A stretch of DNA of 64,000 bases from Escherichia phage vB_EcoM_G2248. The notes beneath the pieces were generated by a model. It was not told the origin of the DNA and made no database searches. It saw only the letters and a program-made list of their open reading frames with translations. The first letter of the stretch is position 1. The number at the start of each line of letters is the position of its first letter. The DNA is taken from sequence record MK327932.1; one strand, given 5' to 3'. Below, in pieces: positions 6,955-61,929 of the stretch. The position numbers and the translations under genes are program-made.

Positions 6955-6957
6955 ATC

Positions 6958-8839: not shown

Positions 8840-9594
8840 TATAAACCTACCTTCGCTTTCATCAATTCAATCCACGACGCATCAATCGGAAGCCCGTATT
8901 TCACGCGTTCTTTTTGTGCTGGCGTTAAGTTCTCATACTTAGAAAGAGATTCAATCAAAACGCTGGTATATTTTAGCACGATTTCGGTATTGTTTGCAAT
9001 AGCCTTGAGTTTTTCCTCTTTCTTGTTGATTTCGCTAAGGGCTTGCTTGAGATCTGCAATTTTCTGATAACGTTCTTCCATACGGAAGATAGTATTTTTA
9101 ATCGCTCGCTCGGCTGCCTCTGCTTTCTCCGGTTCGTTGTGCTTTTTGTGGCGCTCGATTGCTAATTTCTTTTCTTCGATTGCTATTTCCTGATTTTTGA
9201 TGCGATTCTCGTTAAGTTCGATCCACTCGATGTACTTCGCACGTAGGGCAATTTCATCATCAGAAAGTTTACCGTTAGTTCCTAGTTCCTGAATCTCTTT
9301 AAGAGATTCGATAGTGTGATTGCCACGGAAAGAATTATATTTCAGTTTAACCGGAATTACATTGCCATCAACATATCCCAGATTGCAATCAATGCGCTCT
9401 AAGGAGAGTCCGTCATCACCTTCACCGAAAGCCTCACCTGAATAGGCGCAATGAGTCTGACGGTAAATGTTACGCACAGTGACTAAGCTCATAGAGAAGT
9501 CTTTGTTGCGACGTGAAGCGCCAGCCATGATAGAGTTCAGACGGAAAACAACCAGCGCCAGTTCTTCGTTAGATTTAAAAGCAAACAGTTTCAT
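8839..9594 (-). CDS. hypothetical protein with K/E-rich coiled-coil C-terminus (srd position)
   Basis: 251-aa ORF; ATG at 9592-9594 with GGAGAATCAATTATG; promoter cassette at 9624-9652. Confidence 0.5.
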   Translation of the reverse strand: MKLFAFKSNEELALVVFRLNSIMAGASRRNKDFSMSLVTVRNIYRQTHCAYSGEAFGEGDDGLSLERIDCNLGYVDGNVIPVKLKYNSFRGNHTIESLKEIQELGTNGKLSDDEIALRAKYIEWIELNENRIKNQEIAIEEKKLAIERHKKHNEPEKAEAAERAIKNTIFRMEERYQKIADLKQALSEINKKEEKLKAIANNTEIVLKYTSVLIESLSKYENLTPAQKERVKYGLPIDASWIELMKAKVGL

Positions 9595-12731: not shown

Positions 12732-13367
12732 TCAAGCGAATGTAGAAAGCAAATGTTTTGTTTCTTTCAGTTGTCGTTCAAGATCTTTGCGTTTCTCTTT
12801 AAGTTGCATTTTAGCATTATTTCGCTGTTTTTCAACATCTTTATCAATACTCTTATTCCAGTTATCAATATCAGAATAAGTTGGCATACCCAATTCTAGA
12901 CCTAATGCGGTTGGATACAGGGTAACAGTCCATAAACCGCTAATCTTCTTAAATAGGTCGGGGTGTAGTGTACTATCTACATCTTCCGGTGTCAACTCTT
13001 TTTCTTCTTTCAGTGGTGGGATCTCGTCATATGGTTCCAGTGCATTTACTTTAATATCAGATACCTCATCAAAGAATCCGCGTACATCCGCAGGAAATAC
13101 ACAAGCAATTTCCCAACCGTGATCACGCAGAGAAGTAATATTTTTCACTCCCCCGCCATGTGTGATGATTGATGTGACATTGCCATCAAGGTCCACCGAA
13201 TTTACGAGAAATGGCTTATCGTCTGTCAGATCATTATAAAACTGTGCTTCGGCTGTAGTCATCTCCAGAAACAGATCTCGGATCGGACGACCATCAGGTG
13301 CGTTACCTTCCTTGAGAGTATAAAAGCGACTTACGATCCATTTTGGCGGTAAAGCATTAGCGATCAT
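12732..13367 (-). CDS. hypothetical protein
   Basis: 211-aa ORF immediately downstream of 41; acidic middle region, basic coiled-coil tail. Confidence 0.5.
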   Translation of the reverse strand: MIANALPPKWIVSRFYTLKEGNAPDGRPIRDLFLEMTTAEAQFYNDLTDDKPFLVNSVDLDGNVTSIITHGGGVKNITSLRDHGWEIACVFPADVRGFFDEVSDIKVNALEPYDEIPPLKEEKELTPEDVDSTLHPDLFKKISGLWTVTLYPTALGLELGMPTYSDIDNWNKSIDKDVEKQRNNAKMQLKEKRKDLERQLKETKHLLSTFA

Positions 13368-28285: not shown

Positions 28286-29755
28286 CTATTCCCCATTGCC
28301 ATTATACTTTCTTTGCTTAGTTATCCACACTCTAACCATCTCTACAGATTCGCCGTCAGACGGATCAAGAGTTTTTCCTTTTTTCTTCATACGGTACTTA
28401 AATCCGTTAAATCTTGCATTCTCTTGCTCGTTAAAGTCGAACATCTTTTTAAATGATTTTCGCCCTTTACGCTCGCCACATTCTAGCGGAATCATTCGGT
28501 CTGTTATTACATTGGCATTAGGTAGAAACGTTTTTAGATAATCTACCAACGCCCAATCAGGAACATATAGATTAACATTCTCCTTGCTCTCGTTGTCTCT
28601 CAGGTTACAACGCAAACATAATTGAAATGCTGGTTCCAGATAATCAGACACATGACGCGCTTTCAAAAACTCGTTTGTCGGGAGATCGCAACTATTAGCA
28701 AGACCTTTTAAAATATCAATCTCCCATCGTTGAGGGTTAAAGCTGAACATCACAGCAACATTTTTATGATGAATGTAAGAGTTAAGACCATAAGATCCGT
28801 AAGGTATCCTCTCACCAATACCATTTGTGCACGCTTCACGGTCCCGATTCACGGTATAAATGAAGTCATCACCACATTCATTTTTAACCATATCAACAAG
28901 ACGTTCAAAGGTATTGTTTGTTTCTGACTGGTGACGCGACCATCGTTCAGAATCCGTCATAAGGATGATGTTAACTCTATCTGTATTTTTATACTCTTTG
29001 AAATATAGTCTGGATTCTAGCGCACTCGGAACAAAATCGCAATTTGCATAGTATCGTAGATACTTCCCACTATATGTATCAAAGAGATTTGCACATGCTA
29101 TCGTAACCTTTTTAAAGTCTCCCCACGTACCGTGTTTGTTATCGTTCAAGAAAACAATTTTCGACCCATTCTTCCGGTGTCCTTCGTTATGTTTTACCAT
29201 AACGTTGATTTTCTTCTCTAATAACGCCTCATAAAGCCCTCTAAGAGAAGAATCGATCATATCAGTACCATCCTTTGCACTTTCTATCTTTTCTTTGATA
29301 ACGGCCTTCTCAGAGTCTTTTAGAACTAAGTTCTGTAGGCATTCCGATTCGTCGGCGATTGGTTCGCAATGCTTCGTGATAAGTTCAAGATTAGACTTAA
29401 ACGGATACTCATTAAATTCAACCAGTTGAGGAACTTCATCAATGTAAAGAGCATATTCACCAAACATTTTTGAACGTTCCATATTAGATAACGCTGTATG
29501 TGTAATGAATATCACATCAGCACCATCTTTAACTGATTGCATTATCGACGCTTGCACTGTCTTAAGGCTTCTTAGTCTTGTGCTATCAATCAAGACAGCA
29601 CGACCGCCCATTCTTTTAAACTTATTGTAAGATTGTTCACTTAAAACACGAGATGGCGAAGCAATAACCGCTTTTTCTTTTGTCTCTAGGACGTGGGAAA
29701 GTATAGCATCAGTTTTCCCCGCCGCTGGCAATGCGATTAATGTTTCAATCTTCAT
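28286..29755 (-). CDS. helicase-like P-loop NTPase, function unknown
   Basis: 489 aa; Walker A-like LPAAGKTD, motif Ia-like ASPSRVLSEQ, Walker B YIDEVPQ; C-terminal ~300 aa without recognisable motifs. Confidence 0.55.
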   Translation of the reverse strand: MKIETLIALPAAGKTDAILSHVLETKEKAVIASPSRVLSEQSYNKFKRMGGRAVLIDSTRLRSLKTVQASIMQSVKDGADVIFITHTALSNMERSKMFGEYALYIDEVPQLVEFNEYPFKSNLELITKHCEPIADESECLQNLVLKDSEKAVIKEKIESAKDGTDMIDSSLRGLYEALLEKKINVMVKHNEGHRKNGSKIVFLNDNKHGTWGDFKKVTIACANLFDTYSGKYLRYYANCDFVPSALESRLYFKEYKNTDRVNIILMTDSERWSRHQSETNNTFERLVDMVKNECGDDFIYTVNRDREACTNGIGERIPYGSYGLNSYIHHKNVAVMFSFNPQRWEIDILKGLANSCDLPTNEFLKARHVSDYLEPAFQLCLRCNLRDNESKENVNLYVPDWALVDYLKTFLPNANVITDRMIPLECGERKGRKSFKKMFDFNEQENARFNGFKYRMKKKGKTLDPSDGESVEMVRVWITKQRKYNGNGE

Positions 29756-30222: not shown

Positions 30223-30481
30223 AAATCGCCCTCAGTTCTTTATAGCCTCCAATGTGCTCGTTGTCAATGAATATCTGGGGGTATACAAACCGGAGGCTCT
30301 TTGAGTTCAGCCTCCCCGCCAGTTCTTCAATCATATCACGGTCGGGAATAATGTCAACCCCGACCTGCTTGAATACTGGTTTAAGTGTATACGGAATACC
30401 CAGATCATCCAGTAGCTTCATTGCACCAATACAACCATAACAATGATAAGCCTCTTTCGGTATGCCGTATATCTCGATCAT
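30212..30481 (-). CDS. nrdH: glutaredoxin-like protein NrdH
   Basis: 89 aa; CYGC redox motif near N-terminus; position near nrdG/nrdD. Confidence 0.7.
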   Translation of the reverse strand: MIEIYGIPKEAYHCYGCIGAMKLLDDLGIPYTLKPVFKQVGVDIIPDRDMIEELAGRLNSKSLRFVYPQIFIDNEHIGGYKELRAIYDY

Positions 30482-30978
30482 TTCTCAGCCTTTAATCTTT
30501 CTAGTTCTTCTTCCAGTTCCTTGATCCGTTGGTCACGTTCAAAGTCACGCTGTAGCTTAGTGGCAAATACTCGCTTAAACTGATTGTAATCATCGATTTT
30601 AAACACTTCTTCTTCGCCATAGCGACGTACAGAAACTTCGTAGTTATTGAAGAATTGTTGCATCATTGCTTCGGATGATAGTTCTGCTGATACTACTTTA
30701 AAATATTGATCTTCTGTAGGCGAAAACCAATTACAAGCATAAAGATAAACCTTTTCATTGTCTGGACACTGGTAAGCCTTACCATCGATTTCAATCACAG
30801 AAACATATTCAGGTATAGTAGATGAATCAATAGCTAAGACTTTAAACGAACGGTCCCCGATAAACTCGGAGATCACACGATTCGCATCACTGGTTGCAAA
30901 TGCTTTACGCGCTTGTTCGTTTTTCCACTGATAGGTCATGCCAACAACAAACATATTACCATCCTCGCTCTTTACCAA
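30478..30978 (-). CDS. paralogous family member A (beta-rich domain + charged coiled-coil tail)
   Basis: 166 aa; shares domain pattern with ORFs at 30956, 31793, 32283, 36635, 37184, 38419 and 39000. Confidence 0.5.
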   Translation of the reverse strand: MVKSEDGNMFVVGMTYQWKNEQARKAFATSDANRVISEFIGDRSFKVLAIDSSTIPEYVSVIEIDGKAYQCPDNEKVYLYACNWFSPTEDQYFKVVSAELSSEAMMQQFFNNYEVSVRRYGEEEVFKIDDYNQFKRVFATKLQRDFERDQRIKELEEELERLKAEK

Positions 30979-31780
30979 TCAAAAATTCAACTTCACGACG
31001 TTTAATATCTTCTTGAAGGTCTTTAATCTTCTGGCGATCTTGCATGATTTCATCCATCTTGTCAAGTGCCGCAATGAAATCATCGAAACGTTCAAAGGTT
31101 TTACCTTCATTTGCTTCGCCAAATTTAACCATTGTCAGGCCGTAACGACTACTAAACAGACGTTTCAACTGTCCAACGATTTTAGAATCAGTGGTTATAA
31201 CTTCCAATTCTTCTACCTCTTGAAAGAATTTTCTATCAGAATCAATAAACCAGCTAGTTCCCTTATGGTCGCTATCTTCGGTTGCGCTCATTAGAGTATG
31301 GTCTTTACCATCAATTTCAATTACATTAACTTGCCCACATAGACTAACATTTTTAACAGTAAAAGGTCTATAATTTATTGCTCGTGCAATAACATAATTA
31401 AGGTTAGATACGTTTTCAGCATAATGACAGAAGTCGGTCATAGCATTCGCATCTTTCCAAGTATAAGTTTTACCAACTTCCCATTTCTGGGGAACTTCTT
31501 CAACTTCACGAAAGAATTTTCGATCGAATGGACTAAAGAAATATGTTGCAGTCCAAATGTCTTTTCCTGTAGCAGTTTTCGCCGTATGATAAACACCGTC
31601 TAGCTCTATTGCATTAATCCAACCGTTACCCTCGATCTCGATGATGGTAAATGGCTTGTCACCAATAGCTGCACTAATATCGCTGTTAAGTGGAGAAAGA
31701 ACACCTTCTCCGTTAGTAATAAACTCAGTTTTAGCGTTTTCATCTTTCCAGGTGTAAGTTTTACCAATTTCCCATTTCAT
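30956..31780 (-). CDS. paralogous family member B (two tandem copies of the domain)
   Basis: 274 aa; repeats MKWEIGKTYTWKDENAKTEF and KWEVGKTYTWKDANAMTDF, each ending RKFF(R/Q)EVEE. Confidence 0.5.
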   Translation of the reverse strand: MKWEIGKTYTWKDENAKTEFITNGEGVLSPLNSDISAAIGDKPFTIIEIEGNGWINAIELDGVYHTAKTATGKDIWTATYFFSPFDRKFFREVEEVPQKWEVGKTYTWKDANAMTDFCHYAENVSNLNYVIARAINYRPFTVKNVSLCGQVNVIEIDGKDHTLMSATEDSDHKGTSWFIDSDRKFFQEVEELEVITTDSKIVGQLKRLFSSRYGLTMVKFGEANEGKTFERFDDFIAALDKMDEIMQDRQKIKDLQEDIKRREVEFLIGKERGW

Positions 31781-31792
31781 AATATATTCCCC

Positions 31793-32293
31793 TTAACCGA
31801 TTTTATCAAGTTCGTTTAATGCTTTCTCAGCTTCCTGTATAGCTTGCACTCTTTCCGGCATTTTGTCAAGAAAATCTTTCAACTCTTCAAAACTGGAGAT
31901 ATGACGCAAGGCGTTAGCACCGATAGCCGCATGTGATTTGCATTCAAAGCGGATTTTATAATTATCCATAGCCAATTTTAGAAGGTCTATTAGATCATAT
32001 TCATGACCAGGCAATAAAACTTCTTTGAAGCACGCTCGGTCGCCATCGGAAAACCATATATTATCACCAACATCGATAGAACTAATATAATCCCCTTCGT
32101 GATTATAGATTGAACGTACATTACCCCAACGGTCTACCGTAGCGACAGTAAATGGTTTATCTAGATATGTAAACACACCATCAATATTAGGTTTTTGTTC
32201 GTAACGCCAACAATCACGCAAAATACGCTTTTCGTCCTCACCAACCAACTTATATGTCTTCCCTTCTTCCCATTTCATAATATCATCTCTCAT
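31793..32293 (-). CDS. paralogous family member C
   Basis: 166 aa; MKWEEGKTY... domain plus helical tail. Confidence 0.5.
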   Translation of the reverse strand: MRDDIMKWEEGKTYKLVGEDEKRILRDCWRYEQKPNIDGVFTYLDKPFTVATVDRWGNVRSIYNHEGDYISSIDVGDNIWFSDGDRACFKEVLLPGHEYDLIDLLKLAMDNYKIRFECKSHAAIGANALRHISSFEELKDFLDKMPERVQAIQEAEKALNELDKIG

Positions 32294-32819
32294 TTTTGAT
32301 ACGTGATTCTAATTGGATCATACGGTCTCGCGTTTGCTTGTATTCGCGGATAGCACCAATCCGGCTAGGCATACCATTTAGAACGCTCTTAATACCTTCT
32401 AGGGTAGTGATTTTGGCAATACTATGTTGTAGCCCCGTCTTATCGATCAACTGAATGTCGTAGGCTTCCATAAGCAGACCCAGACGTTCTAAAGTTAGGT
32501 CTTCTTCTTTTTCTTCCGATTCTGGAATCTTAGGTTCAATAGTAACTTCGGTAAAGAAACGACGCTCACCCGACCAAAACCACACACCGGAACAGCCAAT
32601 AGGGGATTCTTTTAACGTCATAGAGTCGAAATCACTACCAATAATAGTAATTTCTCTAACATCACCATCATCGTCAATGTCTTCTACCCTAAACGGGCGA
32701 CCAGCCAACAAGTCAACAATACATCTGTTAATAGACGACGAAAATTTAGTCAGTTCGGCTTTCGACGCTTCGCATTCAATCTTGTAAGTTTTACCAACTT
32801 CCCATTCCATAATAATCAC
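32283..32819 (-). CDS. paralogous family member D
   Basis: 178 aa; MEWEVGKTYK... domain, ERRFFTEV motif, helical tail. Confidence 0.5.
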   Translation of the reverse strand: MIIMEWEVGKTYKIECEASKAELTKFSSSINRCIVDLLAGRPFRVEDIDDDGDVREITIIGSDFDSMTLKESPIGCSGVWFWSGERRFFTEVTIEPKIPESEEKEEDLTLERLGLLMEAYDIQLIDKTGLQHSIAKITTLEGIKSVLNGMPSRIGAIREYKQTRDRMIQLESRIKNER

Positions 32820-32820
32820 C

Positions 32821-33330
32821 TCAAATAATTTTCACTGGAATACTATTAACAATCTTGTATTGTACTTGATTGTCGGACCCACGCCACGGTTTTTTCGTTG
32901 GCATGTCTTTAATATACCGACCATCGATGAACATGTCAACTGATTCTACAATTTTTCTTTGCTCATCATTCAATTGGTCAAGGGTATAACCGGACCATAG
33001 CCAAATATCTTTATTTGGCATCCATGATTTTACTTCATCGATGATCCGCTGTACACCCTTTAAATTGCGTTTATACAGTGGATCGCCACCTAAGAATGTT
33101 AGCCCCTGAATAAAATCAGGTCTAAGCAGATCCAGAATCAATCCCATTGTATCATCGGTGAATGGTTCCCCGTTCTTAGGATTGAGTATGCTAGCATTAA
33201 AGCAACCATCACATGCGTGTGAACATCCGGTAACGTAAAGGGAGACTCTCACTCCCTCACCGTTAACCATATCACAATCTTTAATATCGGCATAGCGTAG
33301 TTTGCCGTATGTATCAGAACTCATATTCAA
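32821..33330 (-). CDS. nrdG: anaerobic ribonucleotide reductase activating protein NrdG (radical SAM)
   Basis: 169 aa; CxxxCxxC cluster CSHACDGC; adjacent to nrdD. Confidence 0.85.
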   Translation of the reverse strand: MNMSSDTYGKLRYADIKDCDMVNGEGVRVSLYVTGCSHACDGCFNASILNPKNGEPFTDDTMGLILDLLRPDFIQGLTFLGGDPLYKRNLKGVQRIIDEVKSWMPNKDIWLWSGYTLDQLNDEQRKIVESVDMFIDGRYIKDMPTKKPWRGSDNQVQYKIVNSIPVKII

Positions 33331-33466
33331 TTACCCCGAACTCGTTTACAATCTGCGCTTTATAGTAACCACCGCGAGATGCCAATAGATAAGCTGGGCT
33401 TAGGTATTCGTATTCACGGATTTCTACTTGTGCGTTTTCAGTTTCCCAAATCAGTAAAGTCCACAT
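33314..33466 (-). CDS. hypothetical small protein (50 aa)
   Basis: track ORF 33314-33541 overlaps the promoter at 33509-33537; ATG at 33464-33466 follows GGAGAATCAAATATG. Confidence 0.3.
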   Translation of the reverse strand: MWTLLIWETENAQVEIREYEYLSPAYLLASRGGYYKAQIVNEFGVIEYEF

Positions 33467-33508
33467 ATTTGATTCTCCTGTAAGGTTGTATCTCGTCTTG
33501 ATGAATAT

Positions 33509-33537
33509 AGTATAGGGGATCTCGCGATCCCCGTCAA
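33509..33537 (-). promoter_or_regulatory. early promoter cassette with spacer palindrome
   Basis: TTGACG-GGGATCGCGAGATCCCC-TATACT. Confidence 0.5.
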
Positions 33538-33541
33538 GCAT

Positions 33542-34069
33542 TTATTTTAAATTTTTTCGAATGTATTCAGACCATTCCTTCCCTGTCATTTCGGACCCGT
33601 TCTGGAAACTGAAATATTCATACGGCATCGAGTCAAGATAAAACAGGATCATACATCGCGCCATATAATACCAATCACGATTAAAGTAAACTACGTTATC
33701 ACCAGTACCATCAGCACCTTTATCATAACCATCGCGGGTACGGGCGACCCATTGAATAGTATCATTTTTCTCACGGATAGTAACAGGTTCCCAATATCCA
33801 GCACATCCAGCATGACCACACGAACAAGTAAGGAAATATTGACCTTTTGCTTTGTTGTCATCCCATTCACGATGGATTGGTTCGATCTCGTGAAACAATG
33901 CCAAGCAATCATGATTATGCAACACTGGCTTACCATCAATCAATGCATGGAATGTATACAAACGACCAGTAGACAGATAGCTATCCTCACGCTCAACCAG
34001 TTCAATAGCAATCTTTTTAGCTCGTTCTTTGTGTCGTTGTGCTTTACGCTTACGGTTTAATGATTTCAT
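33542..34069 (-). CDS. hypothetical Cys/His-rich protein
   Basis: track start is TTG; first plausible ATG gives MKSLNRKRK...; CSCGHAGCAGY cluster. Confidence 0.45.
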   Translation of the reverse strand: MKSLNRKRKAQRHKERAKKIAIELVEREDSYLSTGRLYTFHALIDGKPVLHNHDCLALFHEIEPIHREWDDNKAKGQYFLTCSCGHAGCAGYWEPVTIREKNDTIQWVARTRDGYDKGADGTGDNVVYFNRDWYYMARCMILFYLDSMPYEYFSFQNGSEMTGKEWSEYIRKNLK

Positions 34070-34086
34070 ATTCACCCCACACATTA

Positions 34087-34626
34087 TCAAAGGTCGCGAT
34101 ATAGTACATTATGAAAATGAGAACTTGCATTACCAATATTGTAGATAATAAATTCTTCATCCGGCGCTTGCGCTACAAATTGAGTATGAGCAACCGCCAC
34201 AACCTTAAAAATACGATCCGTGATCTTGTGTTTAATTTCTGCCCCTACTTCCATAGGAACATATTCATTTGTTTCTGTTTCAGTCGCAAAACAGCCATCT
34301 TCTTCATAAGCACGAATAAATCGGTCGCAATCAGTACGCTTAACAAATTCAAGAGTATATAATTCTCGTGAATTGTCGGTATAGACCAATACAGAATTAT
34401 TATGATAGCGAATCACATACAGGTTATTATCATCGTCAATTACGCAAAAGCTACGGATTCCTTCGCCTTGACTCCAGCAGATATTAACCACCGTTCCTCT
34501 AATAAAAAAACTTTCCTTTAAATTAAAACTAGCCAATGTGCTAGCGTGCATTTTAACAACAACACCATCACCAATTTCCAGTTTACGAAGTTTAACTTCT
34601 TTGCTCAGTACACAAAACATCATCAT
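34087..34626 (-). CDS. hypothetical protein
   Basis: 179-aa ORF; triple ATG with GAGGA SD; promoter at 34656-34683. Confidence 0.5.
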   Translation of the reverse strand: MMMFCVLSKEVKLRKLEIGDGVVVKMHASTLASFNLKESFFIRGTVVNICWSQGEGIRSFCVIDDDNNLYVIRYHNNSVLVYTDNSRELYTLEFVKRTDCDRFIRAYEEDGCFATETETNEYVPMEVGAEIKHKITDRIFKVVAVAHTQFVAQAPDEEFIIYNIGNASSHFHNVLYRDL

Positions 34627-34655
34627 GTTGTCCTCTCGTTGTTTTCGATGTGAGC

Positions 34656-34683
34656 ATTATACATTAGCTAATCATGTTGTCAA
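34656..34683 (-). promoter_or_regulatory. early promoter
   Basis: TTGACA-N16-TATAAT then CATCGAAAAC leader. Confidence 0.5.
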
Positions 34684-34695
34684 CACCCCAAAACG

Positions 34696-34720
34696 AAAAA
34701 GCCGACCCTTTCGGATCGGC
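34696..34720 (-). terminator. rho-independent terminator after nrdD
   Basis: hairpin GCCGAUCC-GAAAG-GGUCGGC + U-run, 6 nt after nrdD stop. Confidence 0.6.
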
Positions 34721-34726
34721 TAAAAA

Positions 34727-36589
34727 TTACATGTGCTTAACGCGGTTTACCATCTCGGAGTGTTTCCCGTGGTTGAATGGACGCAGATCAACAGATCCAA
34801 GATATCCACTAACGCGACGGATAACATTCATCTTTTCCAGATTGTCATTGCCGCAATCAGGACAAACAAAACCAGACTCGGTCGCTCTCATTTCCTTAGT
34901 AGATCCGCATACATGACATACATCAGAAGGAGTATTAACACCGAAGTAGTGCAATTTATCCATTGCATAGTCTACTACAGTTTCAAGACCTTTCAGGTTG
35001 TTTTTCATGTCTGGGAACTCAACATAAGAGATCATGCCACCGGACGCCAGCCAGTGATAATCTTTCTCAAAGTCGATTTTCTCAAATGGAGTGACTTTCC
35101 GGTCTACGTCAAGGTGGAATGAGTTGGTGTACCAGTCTTTATCGGTAGCACCCTTAACAATACCAAATTGCTCTCGGTCCAGTCGATTAAATCGATAGCA
35201 AAGGCTCTCGGCTGGCGTACCGTAAAGACTAAACCCAAGTCCGGTTTCATCCTTCCATTTTTCAGTATAATGACGCAAGATCTTAAGAATATGTTTACCG
35301 TATCGCTGCGCATCTTCCGAATCAAACGGATGAACACCAAACAGGACGCTCAATACCTCATGTAAACCAATATATCCAAGAGAGATACTAGCGCGACCAT
35401 CTTTCAGAACTTCCAAAATTTCATCGTTTTGATGAATACGGAAAAATGCACCTTCTGTATACAGTACAGGAGCAACATTGGCTTTAGCCCCTTTTAAAGC
35501 GTCTACGCGACTCATGAGCGCATCAAAGCAAATAGGCATACGATTAGCTAGCTCTTGTTCGAATAGCTCAATTCTGCGCATTACAGACGCTTTACCAGCA
35601 CGACGCGCGGCAATAAGGGCAATACGCGGAAGATTTAGAGTCACAACACCTAAGTTATTACGTCCGTCTAATACTTCTTCGCCTTTCTCATTATGCCACA
35701 CACCCAGGAAGCTACGACAACCCATCGGGCTAACCGGAACACTAGATCCAGTGATACTACGGTTATTCTTCGCAGAGATATAATCAGGGTAAAGACGCTT
35801 ACTAGAACATTCCAATGCAAGTTGCTTAATGTCGTAGTTCGGATCTTCCGGTTTAAGGTTTAATCCTTCTTCTAAGAACATCACCAGCTTAGGAAACACC
35901 GGAGTTATACCGTCTTTACCTAAACCTTTAGTTCGAACTTTCAGGATCGCTTTCTGAATCAGTTTTTCTTCCCAGCTAGTACCCATACCAAAGGTTAAAG
36001 TCACAAAAGGCGTTTGACCGTTGGTGGAGAACAAAGTGTTGATTTCATATTCCAACGCTTGATACCCGTCTAGCGTTTCTTTTTCTGTCTTCTCTTGTGC
36101 ATAGAGAGTATCAGCTTTGATTCCGTAGGTTTCGGCATCAGCAAGGTGTTTATGATATGTTTTCTCAACGTATGGCGCTAAAACCTGATCGATGTTTGCA
36201 ATTGTGGTCCCGCCATATTGATGACTTGCCACCTGTGCGATAATTTGAGCGGTTACAGCACAAGCAACGCCGATCGATTTCGGACTTTCGATTTGTGCGC
36301 TACCCAATTTAAAACCATTCTCTAACATGTCTTTGAGATTAACAAGACAGCAGTTAGTAAACGGCATAGCGGGTGCATAATCCATATCATGATAATGAAT
36401 ATCACCATCTACATGCGCTTTATAGATGTGCTCAGGTAACACGGTTTTAGCAATCTGTTTAGACACAGCACCAGCAATCAGATCTCGACGTGTCGGGAAT
36501 GTTCGCGCGTCTTTGTTCGCGTTCTCTTTGCTTACTTCGTTTTCTTTACCCGTTGCGATCTCTGTAATGTCTTTGATTAGTTTTTCCAT
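34727..36589 (-). CDS. nrdD: anaerobic ribonucleoside-triphosphate reductase NrdD
   Basis: 620 aa, uninterrupted; C-terminal zinc ribbon CHVCG...CPDCG. Confidence 0.9.
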   Translation of the reverse strand: MEKLIKDITEIATGKENEVSKENANKDARTFPTRRDLIAGAVSKQIAKTVLPEHIYKAHVDGDIHYHDMDYAPAMPFTNCCLVNLKDMLENGFKLGSAQIESPKSIGVACAVTAQIIAQVASHQYGGTTIANIDQVLAPYVEKTYHKHLADAETYGIKADTLYAQEKTEKETLDGYQALEYEINTLFSTNGQTPFVTLTFGMGTSWEEKLIQKAILKVRTKGLGKDGITPVFPKLVMFLEEGLNLKPEDPNYDIKQLALECSSKRLYPDYISAKNNRSITGSSVPVSPMGCRSFLGVWHNEKGEEVLDGRNNLGVVTLNLPRIALIAARRAGKASVMRRIELFEQELANRMPICFDALMSRVDALKGAKANVAPVLYTEGAFFRIHQNDEILEVLKDGRASISLGYIGLHEVLSVLFGVHPFDSEDAQRYGKHILKILRHYTEKWKDETGLGFSLYGTPAESLCYRFNRLDREQFGIVKGATDKDWYTNSFHLDVDRKVTPFEKIDFEKDYHWLASGGMISYVEFPDMKNNLKGLETVVDYAMDKLHYFGVNTPSDVCHVCGSTKEMRATESGFVCPDCGNDNLEKMNVIRRVSGYLGSVDLRPFNHGKHSEMVNRVKHM

Positions 36590-36602
36590 TGTATCACCTA
36601 TG

Positions 36603-36624
36603 AAAAAGCGGGATTTTCTCCCGC
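36603..36624 (-). terminator. rho-independent terminator upstream of nrdD
   Basis: hairpin GCGGGA-GAAAA-UCCCGC + U5 between family member E and the nrdD RBS. Confidence 0.55.
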
Positions 36625-36634
36625 TCGTTGATAG

Positions 36635-37129
36635 TTATTTTACCAGTTCTGCTAATTCTTTTTCTTTAGCTTCTAGTTCAGCTTTAAGCTGTTTAATCTC
36701 TTGTCGCTTCTTATTAGCGGCTTCTTGCTTACTATTTCGGATAACCTGATCTAGATACAACTCCCAATCCTGAATATTTTTGATAATGTAACCGTCAACA
36801 TTAATTGGTCGGAGATTCAGTACAGCTTCCAGTTTAGTTGCAAAAACTTTAATTGCTGGTGTGAAGTATTCATATTCGTTATCTTCAAACCAATAACCTA
36901 GACTTGCATTCTCAATACGAAGATGAAGTTTAAGATCAAGGTCTTTATCATCGGTATATAGGTCTTTTACACACCCAATAGAATTAACAACAACTTTAAA
37001 ACGAATTTTATCTACACCACCAAACACATCTTCAAGAATATCAGCAATTGAGCTATTAGCGCAAGATTGGTCGCTGAATGCGTCAAGGTTTTCTTTAGTT
37101 ACAGTATACCAAACATCTTGTACCCACAT
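36635..37129 (-). CDS. paralogous family member E
   Basis: 164 aa; family-like N-terminal domain with K/E-rich coiled-coil tail. Confidence 0.45.
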   Translation of the reverse strand: MWVQDVWYTVTKENLDAFSDQSCANSSIADILEDVFGGVDKIRFKVVVNSIGCVKDLYTDDKDLDLKLHLRIENASLGYWFEDNEYEYFTPAIKVFATKLEAVLNLRPINVDGYIIKNIQDWELYLDQVIRNSKQEAANKKRQEIKQLKAELEAKEKELAELVK

Positions 37130-37159
37130 AATATAATCCTCTCGTTGTTAAGTGGGAGT

Positions 37160-37187
37160 ATTATAGCATACTCCCTTCGCATGTCAA
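37160..37187 (-). promoter_or_regulatory. early promoter cassette, stem-loop enclosing the -10
   Basis: TTGACA-N16-TATAAT with GGGAGTA...TACTCCC inverted repeat around the -10. Confidence 0.5.
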
Positions 37188-38362
37188 GCACTAACTTTTT
37201 TCTTTACTGCTTTCACCTTCTGGCGAATTGCTCGAATCTCTTCGATCTCTTTTTCAGTCTCTTTAACAATTTCTTTGCGATTCTGAATATCTGTATCTAG
37301 ATTATCATCAAGTTTAGGCAGCATGTCAATCAAGAACTTTTTAAAGTCTTTCAGGTTTCGGATAACAGCACCTTCACCCATTACCGCCACGCCTACACCA
37401 TCCGGCAGGTCGCCAAACAGTTTAACCAGTTCAGACAGATGATCATGATCTTCTAGTGCTTCTTCCGGTTCAGATGGCAGTTCCACAAAGTAATAACGTT
37501 CATCATTGCTGATCAGGTGATACCAGCAAAGCCCAAAAGATTTAGGAGTATATTCTACACCACCAACTTCAACTGCGTCAACACTTCCGAAAGAATCTAC
37601 TTTAGTTACCTTAAATCCATGTTCCAGCGTTTTAATAATTTCAATAACATGACTGGATACGGTTTCAGTATTAAACCAATGAGGCAAATTATGTGGATTT
37701 GGCTTGTATCGTTCGCCTACTTTAAATCTCTGACCACGCTCTTGCATACGGACATATTCAACTCGCGTGATTTCCGCGAAGTATTCAAATTCGCCACCGT
37801 CAAACACAGAAGCCCATTGATCACAAAAACGATCTGCCTTAACAGTTTCACCTTTCGCGGTGATCATGGTAGCTGATCCGTGCAATTCTTCTTCAACTAA
37901 AAAGCCATATTCGACAAAATCAACAAGTTTCATAGCTTCTTTGTGATCTGGATCATGCTCTCCCCAGAATCGCTTAAATTCTTGCAAACCTTCTGGGGTA
38001 AACGAATAACATTTACCTTTTTCAAAGTAAGTCGGCATTGCATCCTCTTTCTTGTTCATCGCTTCGTATGCCTCTTTTGAGATGCGTTTAAAGTATTTAC
38101 GCTCATTGTGCATAATCATAGTAGCCCAATAATCAACAATATCATTAGCGGAATAAACTACATCTCCAGCTTCAATAGTAATAACATGACCGTGGTCATC
38201 TTTTTCTAATACTTTAAAGCCCTTTTCTACGATTTCAGCAACACGAATATGACCACGGCGCGAAGCATCGGTCAGAATAATTGAATAGCGAGAAAAGTCT
38301 AGAAACTCATCTTTACCGCCTTCACGGAATGCATAGCAATGACCTTCAAAGAATTTAGCCAT
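37184..38362 (-). CDS. paralogous family member F (three domain copies)
   Basis: 392 aa; repeated ERKYFKRI / FEYFAEI / ERYYFVEL motif blocks; K/E-rich tail. Confidence 0.5.
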   Translation of the reverse strand: MAKFFEGHCYAFREGGKDEFLDFSRYSIILTDASRRGHIRVAEIVEKGFKVLEKDDHGHVITIEAGDVVYSANDIVDYWATMIMHNERKYFKRISKEAYEAMNKKEDAMPTYFEKGKCYSFTPEGLQEFKRFWGEHDPDHKEAMKLVDFVEYGFLVEEELHGSATMITAKGETVKADRFCDQWASVFDGGEFEYFAEITRVEYVRMQERGQRFKVGERYKPNPHNLPHWFNTETVSSHVIEIIKTLEHGFKVTKVDSFGSVDAVEVGGVEYTPKSFGLCWYHLISNDERYYFVELPSEPEEALEDHDHLSELVKLFGDLPDGVGVAVMGEGAVIRNLKDFKKFLIDMLPKLDDNLDTDIQNRKEIVKETEKEIEEIRAIRQKVKAVKKKVSA

Positions 38363-38393
38363 AATATAATCCTCTCGTTGTTTAGATGGGAGT

Positions 38394-38422
38394 ATCTTAC
38401 TACTCCCGTTTCATCATGTCAA
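38394..38422 (-). promoter_or_regulatory. early promoter cassette, stem-loop enclosing the -10
   Basis: TTGACA-N17-TAAGAT within GGGAGTAGTAAGATACTCCC. Confidence 0.5.
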
Positions 38423-38985
38423 GCGTTAAATGACTTTTGGATCTCTTTCAGTTCAGCTACTTTATCGGCGCTATATTTTGCTTGATGTTCCATGCGCTTA
38501 AGCTCACCTTTGATATAGGTTTCTAGCTTAGGTTTATTCTCAATCAGAAAATCTTTCAGGTCATCGGCATTTTTAAAGTATAGCTGATTATCAAAGCTAA
38601 AATCTTCCAGCGTCAATGATACCAAAGAAGACTTCGCAAACAAGTTAATCAGATCTTCCAGAGATTCTTCTTTCTTAATTGGTTTCATTTCTTCAAACTG
38701 CTTTTTAGTGATGCGTTTAAAGTATTTTCGCTCGTTTGCAGCAATCAGAACAGATGCACCTTCATACTCATGAGTTTCTACCAGATACACACGCCCCATC
38801 GCATCAACAGTGAGAACTTTAAAGCCGTTACAAAGCACGTCATACAAGAACTTATTATGTTGCGGACATCGTTTGATAAATTCTGCGACTGTTTCTGCAC
38901 TACGGAAAGTATAGTAACGACCTCGTTCAAAAACAGCGTCATTGGGTGACTTAACCGAATATACTTTGTATGTTTTCTGTACCAT
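38419..38985 (-). CDS. paralogous family member G
   Basis: start at internal ATG with GAGGATTATATT SD (MVQKTYKVY...); ERKYFKRI motif. Confidence 0.5.
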   Translation of the reverse strand: MVQKTYKVYSVKSPNDAVFERGRYYTFRSAETVAEFIKRCPQHNKFLYDVLCNGFKVLTVDAMGRVYLVETHEYEGASVLIAANERKYFKRITKKQFEEMKPIKKEESLEDLINLFAKSSLVSLTLEDFSFDNQLYFKNADDLKDFLIENKPKLETYIKGELKRMEHQAKYSADKVAELKEIQKSFNA

Positions 38986-38999
38986 AATATAATCCTCTA

Positions 39000-39272
39000 T
39001 CATTTCACTAATTGAACAGCACGGAACAGAATGCGGTCACACGGAAGCAGCATAAATTCCCAACGCGGATCAAAGTCTTTAGCGGTATATGTTTTCCCAT
39101 CAACCGAGATTTCACTTACATAACCAATAGGTGACACTTTAAGAACAGTAAATCCATTCTTGATGACTTCGTAGGTATCTTTCAATCCTTCGTAGTCATC
39201 CTCTAGGAAGTCTTTACGTGCTTGCTCAGATTTAAAAACATAGGCCACACCGGATTTAAACATCTTACGCAT
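39000..39272 (-). CDS. paralogous family member H (single domain, no tail)
   Basis: 90 aa; GFTVLKVSPIGYVSEISVDGKTY resembles the family core. Confidence 0.45.
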   Translation of the reverse strand: MRKMFKSGVAYVFKSEQARKDFLEDDYEGLKDTYEVIKNGFTVLKVSPIGYVSEISVDGKTYTAKDFDPRWEFMLLPCDRILFRAVQLVK

Positions 39273-39303
39273 TGTTGATTCTCCTTCTTGATTAGATGGG
39301 AGT

Positions 39304-39332
39304 ATTTTACTACTCCCATTTCATGTTGTCAA
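39304..39332 (-). promoter_or_regulatory. early promoter cassette, stem-loop enclosing the -10
   Basis: TTGACA-N17-TAAAAT within GGGAGTAGTAAAATACTCCC. Confidence 0.5.
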
Positions 39333-40123: not shown

Positions 40124-40936
40124 TCAATCTACGTTAGTTACATAAACTTCTTGCGTATCAGAAGACTTACCACCTGAACGATCTAGGCAATAGGTCTTAT
40201 TCAACAGGACGCAGTTTAAATCATTCCGCTTGATAAAGTCAAGGAGATGATCATTTACCTTTCCCTTATGATGCGTGACATTACTGATACCAAACTGAAA
40301 ACCACGCGCCATAATCGATTCTACCCACTGATAGAATTTAATCTCTTCCTCGTCACTCCAGAACTTATTATATTCCGCAGAAGTGATAAGGTACGGCGGG
40401 TCCAAATAAACGAAATCACCTGGCAAGATCTCGATCTCGTCATAGCGACCAGACGTAAAACTGATTCGACCGTCTTTGTTTTCTTCCTTAAAATTCAGGA
40501 CACGCTCTACCGCGTTTTCGTTAAAAGTCCGGCGACCAAAATTAGCATTAAATTCTCCCTTCCTGTTATGGCGGTTAATGTTGCTAAAACTGTGCTGAAT
40601 CAGAACAAACAGAGATAGCGGATCTGGATTCTCATTATACTTCTTGCGGAATGCCATATAAGAATCTTTATCATCACGAGACAAACCATTCTCGGCAATA
40701 ATCAGCTTGATCGTAGAAACCGGATCAGGACACTCGTCAATCGCTTTGTACGCGTCAATTAAGCGGTGATCATAGTCATTAGCCAGAACACCCCCTTCGA
40801 CGTACAGAGACACGCTCAAGCCACCACAAAAGGCATCAACAAAGCGGTTATAGTGCTTAGGGAAATACTTACTAACACTTGGCAATAACTTTTCCTTATT
40901 GCCAGTATAGGGAATTAAACCTAATGCTTTCTTCAT
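40124..40936 (-). CDS. dam: DNA adenine methyltransferase (Dam)
   Basis: 270 aa; SAM-binding FCGGLS and catalytic DPPY motifs. Confidence 0.85.
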   Translation of the reverse strand: MKKALGLIPYTGNKEKLLPSVSKYFPKHYNRFVDAFCGGLSVSLYVEGGVLANDYDHRLIDAYKAIDECPDPVSTIKLIIAENGLSRDDKDSYMAFRKKYNENPDPLSLFVLIQHSFSNINRHNRKGEFNANFGRRTFNENAVERVLNFKEENKDGRISFTSGRYDEIEILPGDFVYLDPPYLITSAEYNKFWSDEEEIKFYQWVESIMARGFQFGISNVTHHKGKVNDHLLDFIKRNDLNCVLLNKTYCLDRSGGKSSDTQEVYVTNVD

Positions 40937-41367
40937 TATCCCTTCCTCAAATAAGTTCGCTCAATCTCTACCAGTTCGAAAAATTCATCCCAATCACACG
41001 GAAAATTGCAGTTTCCAAAATGGTCTTCATTGTAAAGCTCTTTACCGGATGGCAACTTAATATCTGTTACAGTATACCAACCGCAACAATCACAATCACC
41101 CTCAACAACAGAAACTTTCGTCGGAATTTGCATCATTGCCAGATAGGTCGGCACGTCAGACTGTTCAAAGATCATGTAACCTTCATTGTCAAACGAAACA
41201 AAATTATCATCGCCCAAAAAAGGGATATAGTGGTCATAATCGGTTACAGGTTGACCGTGCAATTCCCATTCTACAATTTTAACATTACCACTAAACTTGA
41301 TACCCATCATATCAACCATAAAATGAGTATCGTCAATGTAAATCTTACTAGGAGTTGGATAAACCAT
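40936..41367 (-). CDS. hypothetical Cys-rich protein
   Basis: 143-aa ORF; CDCCGW...CNFPCDW. Confidence 0.45.
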   Translation of the reverse strand: MVYPTPSKIYIDDTHFMVDMMGIKFSGNVKIVEWELHGQPVTDYDHYIPFLGDDNFVSFDNEGYMIFEQSDVPTYLAMMQIPTKVSVVEGDCDCCGWYTVTDIKLPSGKELYNEDHFGNCNFPCDWDEFFELVEIERTYLRKG

Positions 41368-42563: not shown

Positions 42564-42938
42564 TTAAAAATCTTCTTCCGGTTTATATCGACCGTCATCA
42601 ACTGGTTTTGGACTGAATCCGGTATGTTTGCGCGGCTTCGCTTCCGGTTTCCCCGCAATCATCAAACCAAAACATTTCATCCCCTTATAACACATAACAA
42701 TATCAACCACGGTCCACGTTATAGGCCATACGATTGCAGCAATACAAAATGCTCCTGTATCGACCTCTTTGGTGTCCTTATCGAATCTGGCATACAAGCA
42801 GAATACTAGATACGAGATCATTGCACCAGTAAGCCAGATATAAAGCACATTAACAATATCTTGTGTTGTCACGTTATCCTCCTTACATGTCTTGCAGTGC
42901 ATAAAAGCATTTTTCTTCATAGTCATAGAAAATGTCAA
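42564..42938 (-). CDS. hypothetical membrane protein
   Basis: two hydrophobic segments; true start probably internal. Confidence 0.4.
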   Translation of the reverse strand: MTFSMTMKKNAFMHCKTCKEDNVTTQDIVNVLYIWLTGAMISYLVFCLYARFDKDTKEVDTGAFCIAAIVWPITWTVVDIVMCYKGMKCFGLMIAGKPEAKPRKHTGFSPKPVDDGRYKPEEDF

Positions 42939-43161
42939 AGTATGCTTTTTCTACATACTCACCATTGATCCAAGCGGCAGTAACAATCAGAGTGGTCCAG
43001 TTCGATCCACTCTCAACGGTAAAGGTTTTAATACCCAGCTTCGCTGCCAAGTCGAACGCAAACCGGACGCAACCACGGCAGGAAGTGATATTTGAAGTTT
43101 TGATTTTAAAGCCACCGCGAGTTTTGGTAATTTCTACTTTAGCGAAAGACAGGTTGCTCAT
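42883..43161 (-). CDS. hypothetical protein (small-protein family 2)
   Basis: 92-aa ORF; GGAGAATCAAAATG start; promoter at 43204-43232. Confidence 0.5.
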   Translation of the reverse strand: MSNLSFAKVEITKTRGGFKIKTSNITSCRGCVRFAFDLAAKLGIKTFTVESGSNWTTLIVTAAWINGEYVEKAYFDIFYDYEEKCFYALQDM

Positions 43162-43203
43162 TTTGATTCTCCTTAAGAAAGTGTGTTTCGTTTTGATGTG
43201 TGT

Positions 43204-43232
43204 AGTATAGGGGATACGTGATCCCCTGTCAA
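43204..43232 (-). promoter_or_regulatory. early promoter cassette with spacer palindrome
   Basis: TTGACA-GGGGATCACGTATCCCC-TATACT then CATCAAAACGAAACAC leader. Confidence 0.55.
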
Positions 43233-43240
43233 CAACTTTT

Positions 43241-43570
43241 TTATGATTTTAGTGAATTAACCACTACATCAAAATGATGTACAGAGTACACCTTATTAAA
43301 CACATATTCATCGTGTTTAGGAATAGCCCCTAATCGCTCTATTTCGCTCGCTGACACGATAAACCGTTTATCCGGTGCATTTACCTTATATGCTTCAACA
43401 ACGCACGGAAAACGCGTTTTAGCGAGTTCGGGATAGTTTTCTGACTCCATCAGGACAATGAATACCCTGTTACATTGATTGTAGAATCCTGTTTTTGATT
43501 TCATCAAGTTTTCTTCTATGTTCAAGTCGTGCAATCTTCTTTTCATGATTTCGTTGGTTCTTGTCTTCAC
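43241..43570 (-). CDS. hypothetical protein (family 2-like)
   Basis: track start is GTG and overlaps upstream gene; true start uncertain. Confidence 0.35.
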   Translation of the reverse strand: MKTRTNEIMKRRLHDLNIEENLMKSKTGFYNQCNRVFIVLMESENYPELAKTRFPCVVEAYKVNAPDKRFIVSASEIERLGAIPKHDEYVFNKVYSVHHFDVVVNSLKS

Positions 43571-53375: not shown

Positions 53376-53403
53376 TTTAATACTCCTTTGTTTCGATGGG
53401 GGT

Positions 53404-53432
53404 ATATTACTACCCCCGTTTTGTTGTGTCAA
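53404..53432 (-). promoter_or_regulatory. early promoter cassette, stem-loop enclosing the -10
   Basis: TTGACA-N17-TAATAT within GGGGGTAGTAATATACCCCC. Confidence 0.5.
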
Positions 53433-57817: not shown

Positions 57818-58156
57818 TCACACCTTTAAAGTCATAGACGCATAAACATTAATGCCAGGCCAGTTAGGATCGCAATTATACTCAACATCCCACAAATAAA
57901 GCGGTTTAGATGTATCAGCCAAGTTTTTAAAATCTTCTACCCACATTTCAAGGCTATATGATGGATAAACTAGGCTATCATATCCGCCGTAACGTTGGCC
58001 TACTGGTCGGTCAGTAAAAACTACATCAAGATCCGGTAATTCTTTTTCAAGGATAACCGCCAGCGCATAAATCAGACTGTCTTCCTTGTTACGCTGCCGA
58101 AGGACCGTTGTCAGTTGGTTTTTCTGGTTCACTAGCAAGCACCTCCACATTTTCAC
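57818..58156 (-). CDS. hypothetical protein
   Basis: 112-aa ORF; true start likely internal (overlaps upstream ORF). Confidence 0.4.
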   Translation of the reverse strand: MKMWRCLLVNQKNQLTTVLRQRNKEDSLIYALAVILEKELPDLDVVFTDRPVGQRYGGYDSLVYPSYSLEMWVEDFKNLADTSKPLYLWDVEYNCDPNWPGINVYASMTLKV

Positions 58157-58409
58157 AGAATGAAATTTTCACAGACACAATTTTACCATAAGTGAAGAAT
58201 GAATATACATTATCGAGATATTCAACGTCACCTACAATCACATCAAACTGAGGATCAGCCACCGCCGCAACATATTCTACCAGTTCATCAAGAGAATGCA
58301 ACTTAATTTCATCAATTCGGCTGTATTTGGTTGCATCTTTGATTTTAAAACCACGTTCTTTCAGCTTATCAATTAGAATTTCACGCGGAGTTTCAAACAG
58401 TTTGCTCAT
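58089..58409 (-). CDS. hypothetical protein
   Basis: 106-aa ORF. Confidence 0.45.
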   Translation of the reverse strand: MSKLFETPREILIDKLKERGFKIKDATKYSRIDEIKLHSLDELVEYVAAVADPQFDVIVGDVEYLDNVYSFFTYGKIVSVKISFCENVEVLASEPEKPTDNGPSAA

Positions 58410-58430
58410 AATATAATCCTCACATTAAAT

Positions 58431-61869: not shown

Positions 61870-61900
61870 TTTGATTCTCCTTTCGTTTGTTTGTGGGGGT

Positions 61901-61929
61901 ATCTTACTACCCCCGTTTCATGTTGTCAA
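61901..61929 (-). promoter_or_regulatory. early promoter cassette, stem-loop enclosing the -10
   Basis: TTGACA-N17-TAAGAT within GGGGGTAGTAAGATACCCCC. Confidence 0.5.

Follow-up and report, generated by a model that had tools for sequence, protein, structure and literature searches.

The GoF protein of phage T4 has been known since about 1980 only through suppressor alleles. In 2025 it was published by Kim et al., together with MotB.1 and Frd.2, as a family with an 'LSm-like fold' (PMC12152347), and the five-strand bent-sheet topology of its domain is common to Sm and Hfq. The T4 genes for these three proteins are all non-essential, and GoF is a dimer-forming protein that reaches about 20,000 copies per cell. 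A reporter RNA with the 5' untranslated region (5'UTR) of gene 41 is stabilised by the GoF variant D25Y only, the wild type being without effect; the increase in half-life is post-transcriptional and Hfq-independent. AlphaFold3 gave no confident hexamers or ring oligomers for GoF (PMC12152347). The present analysis concerns 64,000 nucleotides of Escherichia phage vB_EcoM_G2248 (MK327932.1), a stretch referred to here as the window. Eight of its genes (G1 to G8), in two blocks around nrdD and nrdG, and a ninth at 12732-13367 (G9) are a lineage-specific expansion of the GoF/Frd.2/MotB.1 family.

The window is from a Krischvirus (RB49/Phi1/JSE-type coliphages, family Straboviridae), with 95-99% nucleotide identity to these phages. 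The best match is vB_EcoM_G37-3, at 98.6% across the whole 8.8-kb array region. In total 58 GenBank records match this region, and 55 of the 58 Krischvirus records retain it at 80% coverage or more. The open reading frames (ORFs) of G1 to G8 are all present on the minus strand at the coordinates first reported, and every other gene of the region lies on that strand too. The nine genes, with their N-terminal domains (N-domains), are:

30478..30954, minus strand: G1, 158 amino acids from the ATG at 30954; N-domain at about 30679-30954 and a helix-hairpin-helix tail; Shine-Dalgarno sequence GAGGA before the ATG; phrog_5347 at 1.5e-60; tail found by a leave-out hidden Markov model (HMM) at 1e-7
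30956..31780, minus strand: G2, 274 amino acids; tandem N-domains at about 31490-31780 and 31196-31489 (HMM 5e-27 and 2e-30) and a tail
31793..32278, minus strand: G3, 161 amino acids; N-domain at about 32006-32278 and a tail
32283..32810, minus strand: G4, 175 amino acids; N-domain at about 32529-32810, an acidic linker and a tail
36635..37129, minus strand: G5, 164 amino acids; divergent N-domain at about 36845-37129 with an extra helix, and a tail
37184..38362, minus strand: G6, 392 amino acids; three N-domains at about 38063-38362, 37748-38062 and 37463-37747 (HMM 9e-27, 1e-23 and 9e-27) and a tail; phrog_8944 'goF' at 5e-208
38419..38985, minus strand: G7, 188 amino acids from the ATG at 38985; one N-domain and a tail; goF in RefSeq
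39000..39272, minus strand: G8, 90 amino acids; a bare N-domain without a tail; phrog_16115
12732..13367, minus strand: G9, 211 amino acids, phrog_16187; N-domain, long acidic linker and K/E-rich helix; directly downstream of the helicase gene 41

The likely starts are ATG codons preceded by a Shine-Dalgarno sequence (G1 30954, G3 32278, G4 32810, G7 38985), and the longer ORF versions starting at TTG or GTG are disfavoured.

The common N-terminal domain of G1 to G8 is about 90 amino acids long and is present in one copy, with two in G2 and three in G6; the genome total is nine genes and twelve N-domains. All-against-all BLASTP links G1, G2, G3, G4, G6, G7 and G8 at 1e-5 to 7e-14 and makes the internal repeats of G2 and G6 visible, with no link from G5 to the other members. 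A domain HMM was made from eleven excised domain copies aligned with T4 GoF and Frd.2. Against the 643 six-frame ORFs of the window it recovers G1 to G8, resolving the two domains of G2 and the three of G6, each at an independent E of 1e-23 or below. As this test is circular, the HMM was rebuilt without each gene in turn and run against 645 sequences (the 643 ORFs with T4 GoF and Frd.2). Every gene was recovered, at 8e-13 (G1), 4e-32 (G2), 8e-10 (G3), 2e-12 (G4), 8e-6 (G5, the weakest member), 3e-23 (G6), 3e-9 (G7) and 5e-15 (G8). G9 was picked up by HMMs that never contained it, at 9e-5 to 1.5e-8. An earlier note on this DNA, made from the sequence alone, had proposed an eight-gene paralogous family with the domain once, twice (30956-31780) or three times (37184-38362) per protein. 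Both proposals are borne out, and the landmark motifs it listed are all found in the proteins.

The same note recognised no T4 counterpart, and in this it was mistaken. HMMs built from the window domains and one T4 protein find the other at 4e-9 (GoF) and 1e-4 (Frd.2). A broad HMM, extended with distant domains from metagenomes, recovers T4 MotB.1, on which it was not trained, at 1.1e-5, and Frd.2 at 1.6e-14. BLASTP of G7 against T4 GoF gives 1.7e-5. The landmarks are present in T4 GoF and Frd.2 (NC_000866), in GoF as F-E-V-N-K-W-Y-Q-F-K, P-F-K-I-L-D-A-D and E-A-G-F-F-D-E-V. Two outcomes had been named as fatal to the proposal. Of these, a lack of significant similarity among the proteins was not observed. 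The proteins do match a conserved T4 family with confidence, although that family is not functionally well characterised.

The family itself is not new, having been published in 2025 (PMC12152347), and some members were already annotated as goF or frd.2. G6 has been 'frd.2' in the RB49 and Phi1 records since their deposition, and RefSeq names both G6 and G7 goF. In PHROGs, G6 and G7 fall in phrog_8944, 'goF mRNA metabolism modulator'; the goF families (13003, 2980 and 8944) match G1, G2, G6, G7 and G8, with cross-matches to other goF families for G1, G2 and G7. No Pfam domain is credible for any of the eight proteins, and nothing was found for LSM or Hfq at E up to 1. There is no family member in the frd-32 interval of Phi1 or between gene 55 and nrdC in T4. 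The early regions of Phi1 beyond the part that corresponds to the window, scanned at 60-80 kb and 120-164 kb and not at 80-120 kb, yielded no additional copies. A 143-aa ORF beside dam (40936-41367, minus strand, phrog_8157) is matched weakly, in two segments, by the broad domain HMM, with a full E of 0.007. It is either a very distant two-barrel relative or a chance match; the ORFs at 58092-58424 and 42886-43248 match more weakly still.

Structure prediction points to a small beta-barrel. The AlphaFold2 model of G4 (34-sequence alignment) has a mean predicted local distance difference test score (pLDDT) of 81.7, with barrel blocks at 79-97. Its elements run in the order strand, two helices, strands and a short helix ahead of the last strand. 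The acidic linker, whose length varies among orthologues, is disordered at residues 95-103 (pLDDT below 50), and is followed by a C-terminal module of a helix, two short strands and a 38-residue helix. The model of G5 (mean pLDDT 86.1) has the same order with one extra helix. DSSP assigns four strands of at least three residues and short bridges, so that the fifth barrel strand is marginal. Each protein is thus predicted to carry one to three copies of an SH3-like beta-barrel of about 90 amino acids, with two helices inserted after strand 1; in most of them the barrel leads into an acidic, disordered linker ahead of the tail. The models share the bent antiparallel barrel (SH3/LSm-like topology) of the Kim et al. 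family, and a variable C-terminal domain joined by a linker is likewise present, except in G8, which is without a C-terminal domain.

The barrels of G4 and G5 agree with each other, and their matches to known structures are weak. Foldseek against the PDB found nothing below E 0.28, and the 60 matches listed include no chain of Hfq, Sm or Rof; a domain-profile HMM search of PDB sequences found nothing below E 0.2. Such weak structural neighbours indicate a generic small barrel of SH3-like or Tudor-like type. Sequence motifs, close structural similarity and basic surfaces of Sm, LSm and Hfq proteins proper were not found, and 'LSm-like' is a description of topology, not of membership. Seven of the nine proteins are acidic (isoelectric point 4.8-5.3, net charge -8 to -19). 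Nine of the 11 barrels scored have a net charge of -2 to -11, compared with +4 for the Hfq core, which calls for caution in reading 'LSm-like' as RNA-binding.

This caution bears on the reading of Kim et al. (2025), in which the proteins are LSm-like RNA chaperones or mRNA stabilisers: the barrels would bind and protect phage transcripts, with paralogues covering different RNAs. The reporter effect of GoF(D25Y) and the topology common to Sm and Hfq speak for it. So do the barrels of G7 and G8, which are near neutral or slightly basic (about +1 to +2), and the position of G9 directly downstream of gene 41, whose mRNA is the transcript affected by the goF suppressor alleles. It is opposed by the strong acidity of most barrels, unlike Hfq, by the failure of AlphaFold3 to give confident GoF rings and by the lack of a reporter effect of both wild-type GoF and MotB.1 (PMC12152347). 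On balance this reading is considered unlikely. The G9 position approximates the T4 slot of dmd, 61.4, sp and 61.2; T4 gp61.2, examined as a counterpart of G9 from roughly the same slot, is unrelated.

The tail, present in most members, consists of a small helix-strand-strand module and, C-terminal to it, a long helix rich in K and E. For the C-terminal half, leave-one-out HMMs are significant for G1, G2, G3, G6 and G7 (5e-5 to 3e-8). The K/E-rich helical tail described in the earlier note stands, as a long helix. A crude heptad test does not establish the coiled coil named there, with borderline values for G3, G4 and G6 and no signal in the other tails (p 0.02-0.5). A coiled coil is plausible, but given the weak heptad signal the tails are not called coiled coils here, and their oligomerisation is a prediction.

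Divergence was measured against Phi1, RB49, Brandy and JK32. The flanking genes nrdH, nrdG, nrdD, 49, nrdC and dam are at 97-100% protein identity, with synonymous divergence (dS) of 0.19 or less. Replaced N-domains are at 44-56% amino acid identity with dS of 1.0-2.0, and the tails of the same genes at 83-100%. The G3 barrel is at 46-47% in all four phages (dS 1.7-1.9), with a tail at 94-96%. Replacement elsewhere is confined to some relatives: the G1 barrel is at 56% in Brandy, the second G2 barrel at 44% in JK32, the G5 barrel at 49-50% in Brandy and JK32, and the third G6 barrel at 81-84% in three phages. For G7, barrel (77-80%) and tail (59-64%) have been replaced independently. The breakpoints lie at domain borders within genes, as seen in a 90-nt sliding comparison. 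Among the 58 records the G3 N-domain alleles split 28 to 30, the window allele being the one found in 28, and the window's G5 allele occurs in 54. The diversification suspected in the earlier note is thus upheld in the form of N-domains swapped as cassettes between near-identical tails and flanks, with chimeras and domain-loss variants also occurring.

The ratio of nonsynonymous divergence (dN) to dS is 0.0-0.6. Values of 0.1-0.6 indicate genes kept by selection. In the replaced cassettes the ratio is about 0.3, with dN well below dS, which suggests the exchange of old, selectively maintained alleles and not demonstrable positive selection. Gene conversion between paralogues was considered as the source of the alleles and rejected, as the alternative alleles are closest to the positional orthologue (43-55%) and not to other paralogues. 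Across the genus there are consequently more types of barrel than a single genome contains: to the twelve of this genome, four other Krischvirus genomes add at least four.

Domain loss and fusion are found in natural metagenomic contigs. A one-barrel G2 (P0050) occupies the G2 position in one with the order nrdG-G4-G3-P0050-G1. The chimera P0047 begins as G4 and ends as a JK32-type G2, the two parts meeting in a D-D-D-x-D stretch that both have, and three genes are thereby reduced to one. Three G4 copies (P0041, P0044 and P0046, ending in VSVVSLPKLLLNLRFQIRKKKKKT) are frameshifted after the barrel, and the G4 orthologue of G37-3 (L004, 33170-33695) is annotated as two overlapping coding sequences; the frameshifts reflect either recurrent inactivation or a sequencing-error hotspot. 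The G4 orthologues P0001-P0038 fall into two barrel allele classes, GRPFRVEDIDDDGDVREITIIGSDFDS and DRSFKVEALDADGDVSEITIIGEDTEP, with a nearly invariant tail and an acidic linker that differs in length by one or two residues.

Such frameshifted and collapsed variants would be expected if the genes were dispensable filler of a hyperplastic region, with paralogues amplified and shuffled by early-promoter cassettes and without a specific role. The T4 homologues are non-essential (PMC12152347), and cassettes of the PeSL type, which are known to promote shuffling (PMC2839356), abound in the region. Against this stand the dN/dS values, low even in swapped cassettes, the retention of the region in nearly all Krischvirus records, and the conservation of the family in numerous genera of Straboviridae as well as in some large myoviruses unrelated to them. 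Moreover, the breakpoints are intragenic, at domain borders, and not at promoter cassettes. The filler explanation is accordingly regarded as highly improbable.

The family extends well beyond the genus. A word-indexed homologue search returned Krischvirus orthologues only, so an exhaustive HMM search was needed for distant relatives. Among 1.84 billion representative proteins it gave only 71 matches at E of 1e-3 or below, mostly with one barrel and a tail, several with two barrels and one other with three. Large multi-repeat matches (e.g. P0055, 1354 aa) align many times over only profile positions of about 26-82 (core about 40-75), and these partial repeated matches were set aside as likely D-x-D-G repeat artefacts. 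A tblastn search of the distant multi-domain proteins P0077 and P0064 against GenBank phages gave no match. Foldseek against BFVD found 58 viral proteins at E of 1e-3 or below. They come from many Straboviridae genera, with Aeromonas, Proteus, Edwardsiella, Citrobacter, Morganella, Pectobacterium and Serratia as hosts, and beyond this family from a few other myoviruses (phAPEC8, Ro121lw, CBB).

Arrays recur in several contigs. In L014, gene 49 and nrdD enclose five family genes, a position that corresponds to the slot of G8-G5, and L013 has a two-barrel gene adjoining nrdH. In L011, a distant T4-like contig, five genes with two or three barrels lie just upstream of an nrdD split by a homing endonuclease, and their C-terminal domain is a different, alpha/beta one. 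L015 carries a two-barrel gene in the T4 goF slot, and at other positions neighbouring members occur as a group of three in L020 and as a pair in L021. Interleaved in the L011 array are two ORFs of about 125-143 aa (6730-7116 and 9121-9555), paralogues of each other (GGKGERGF ... SSLQYCRKTKQIKLH), which may be a second co-amplified gene family.

In the window the order of transcription is dam, nrdC, 49; G8, G7, G6, G5; nrdD; three small ORFs; nrdG; G4, G3, G2, G1; nrdH. In T4, gene 49 adjoins nrdD and only 55.8 lies between nrdG and nrdH, and both four-gene blocks therefore fill slots that are essentially empty in T4. The interval between nrdD and nrdG contains a 179-aa ORF (34087-34626, minus strand, phrog_14838) at 96-98% identity in Phi1, RB49 and Brandy and 61% in JK32. 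It resembles another whole-gene allele replacement in the neighbourhood of the array and is unmatched by the domain HMM. Its own promoter (12/12) is at 34656-34683, preceded by the nrdD terminator at 34700-34721. Just downstream of the G1-nrdH block is a 489-aa protein (28286-29755, minus strand, phrog_2467), with a weak DEAD-helicase Pfam signal in relatives; its gene neighbourhood is also found beside family arrays in contigs L013 and L019.

This setting raises the question of a role in anaerobic nucleotide or iron metabolism, in which FeoA-like barrels would act as accessory factors with NrdD/NrdG or with host FeoB in Fe(II) uptake. Arrays adjoin nrdD, nrdG or nrdH here and in L014, L013 and L011, and no promoter or terminator intervenes between nrdG and G4-G1. 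The arrays of L015, L020 and L021 are in unrelated slots, the T4 members are not near nrdDG, and a predicted terminator insulates G5 from nrdD, itself a known plasticity hotspot (PMC2839356). The proteins also differ from the C-terminal SH3-like domains of the FeoA/DtxR family, with sequence identity of 12-15% only, no Pfam FeoA (PF04023) match and Foldseek E of 0.28 or above. The DtxR-type metal-binding histidines are absent, as reported for GoF (PMC12152347). A metabolic role of this kind is therefore given very little credence.

A Shine-Dalgarno sequence precedes every family gene, as the earlier note had claimed. Its claim of separate promoter cassettes for several genes applies to G8, G6 and G5 alone, each of which lies behind a near-identical cassette of TTGACA, spacer, GGGAGTA, -10 element, TACTCCC and GAGAGGATTATATT-ATG. 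G7, G4, G3, G2 and G1 have nothing more than the Shine-Dalgarno sequence and are presumably co-transcribed with upstream genes. The control elements are:

39298..39332, minus strand: early-promoter cassette upstream of G8; TTGACA and TAAAAT spaced by 17 nt; inverted repeat GGGAGTA/TACTCCC; 11/12 consensus
38388..38422, minus strand: promoter cassette upstream of G6, of the same type as that of G8; 10/12 consensus
37160..37187, minus strand: promoter cassette upstream of G5, a cassette variant; TTGACA, 16 nt, TATAAT; 12/12 consensus
36603..36624, minus strand: terminator-like hairpin and T-run separating G5 from nrdD; the homologous site of G37-3 has an annotated terminator

These early-type sigma70 promoters predict early expression of the genes behind them. 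A pattern search of the whole window for TTGACA-N9-GGGAGTA-N6-TACTCCC finds the copies at 39298-39332 and 38388-38422, where none is expected by chance. Variants with two mismatches to the G8/G6 version (TTGACA-N9-GGGGGTA-N6-TACCCCC) occur at 53398-53432 and 61895-61929, both on the minus strand. These extra copies mark the cassette as a genome-wide early-promoter or PeSL motif that is not specific to the family. The promoter count of the region is not above that of shuffles (33 vs 27.9 +/- 4.9). The PeSL cassettes of RB49 and Phi1 are functional early promoters and terminators that mediate shuffling (Arbiol et al. 2010, PMC2839356). The elements described here are like them in combining a sigma70-consensus promoter with an inverted repeat and in recurring in the window, their activity being predicted. 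They differ in that the inverted repeat straddles the -10 element, whereas in PeSL the stem-loop precedes the promoter, and in that exchange breakpoints lie inside genes at domain borders, away from the cassettes.

The reading favoured over RNA chaperones, held tentatively and at somewhat less than even chances, is that the proteins are abundant, early, non-enzymatic stoichiometric binders of host factors, in which the barrel gives specificity and the tail is a constant scaffold. The proteins would be made early in infection and in abundance. The barrel may be the target-recognition module because it differs between paralogues and passes between related phages as a cassette. For the conserved tail, self-association or docking onto an invariant partner is probable, and tandem barrels and oligomerised tails would provide multivalency. 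Candidate targets are proteins of the host (or of defence systems) with a part in RNA handling or transcription termination; the barrel would bind them, or block them by mimicry, since most barrels are acidic and the T4 goF suppressors act on Rho-dependent mRNA loss.

Several observations argue for such binders rather than chaperones of the Hfq type. The barrels are mostly acidic and wild-type GoF is inactive on RNA. Both suppressor changes lower the acidity of the barrel, since a negative charge is lost in D25Y and a positive one gained in G84R. The G84R change also restores a basic residue carried by 40% of family members: K or R is found at that column in 32 of 80 aligned family domains. 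This column lies directly before the invariant Y/F-F, and the ERK and ERR motifs of the window are examples of it. In addition, barrels of the SH3, Tudor and KOW types typically bind proteins.

A possible analogue of the mode of action is Rof (YaeO), an acidic protein. It is a small Sm-like barrel that blocks the primary RNA-binding site of Rho (PMC11018626), and the Rho link parallels the genetics of goF and rho. The likeness is one of function only, and Rho binding by the GoF family is put forward purely by analogy.

Certain points weigh against the proposal of barrel-specific binders. G7 and G8 are not acidic. Tail homology by leave-one-out HMM is not significant for G4, G5 and G9, and the tails of G4 and G5 agree with the others only in the helix-hairpin-long-helix pattern predicted by AlphaFold2; as noted, the oligomerisation of the tails is predicted. 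A dN/dS above 1 was not seen, replaced cassettes included, and the exchange of cassettes could reflect merely a recombination-prone hyperplastic region. A GoF pull-down from uninfected E. coli gave GoF itself as the sole major bands (PMC12152347), and the link to Rho and RNA comes from two gain-of-function alleles of one distant T4 homologue. The diversifying arsenal (host takeover, anti-defence or exclusion) suggested in the earlier note is a conjecture: in a search of PADLOC-DB (defence and counter-defence families) none of the nine proteins had a meaningful match, and dN/dS in the replaced cassettes is about 0.3.

An extension of the binder proposal, which must be viewed as doubtful, is that the barrels form a population-level repertoire of interchangeable binders on oligomerising tails, reshuffled through recombination at domain borders, a 'binder library' against variable host targets (defence, RNA surveillance). 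If true, it would also explain the independent arrays in other T4-like phages, and would be the first wild-type function for GoF.

Whatever their function, the related phages offer natural experiments in the form of barrel-only allele swaps, domain gain and loss, chimeras and frameshifted copies. These variants point to the barrel as a specificity module and give a concrete experimental handle, and with it a practical route to the long-open question of the role of GoF-type proteins. The annotation of seven 'hypothetical' genes is corrected. The literature searched yielded nothing on the expansion to nine genes and twelve barrels, on proteins with tandem barrels or on the conserved helical tail. 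The same holds for barrel-cassette replacement between Krischvirus genomes, for the natural chimeras and domain-loss variants, and for arrays that recur next to nrdD in distant T4-like contigs. The main text of Kim et al. makes no mention of RB49, Krischvirus, tandem domains, coiled-coil tails or paralogue arrays (PMC12152347).

Among the closest known systems is T4 GoF (ComC-alpha, 141 aa). It differs from the window proteins in its single barrel, in a short C-terminal domain without the long K/E-rich helix and in being a lone gene in the cef-goF-39.2 slot, with no array beside nrdDG. It alone has genetics, D25Y and G84R suppressing the rho (nusD) restriction. T4 Frd.2 (128 aa) and MotB.1 (119 aa) belong to the same N-domain family, MotB.1 much more distantly; G6 differs from Frd.2 in its three barrels, its 90-aa tail and its location outside the frd-32 interval. 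Kim et al. treated three dispersed single-domain T4 genes (PMC12152347). The family they described nevertheless resembles that of the window in its predicted bent antiparallel barrel, flexible linker and variable C-terminal domains, and in having FeoA and the SH3-type domains of IdeR/SloR as structural neighbours. With GoF itself the window proteins share a homologous N-terminal barrel followed by an acidic linker, an acidic character overall and a non-structural gene, predicted to be early in the window, and its F-x-V-x-K-W-Y, P-F-K-I-L-D and E-x-G-F-F-D-E-V segments align with the landmarks by which the window family was first recognised.

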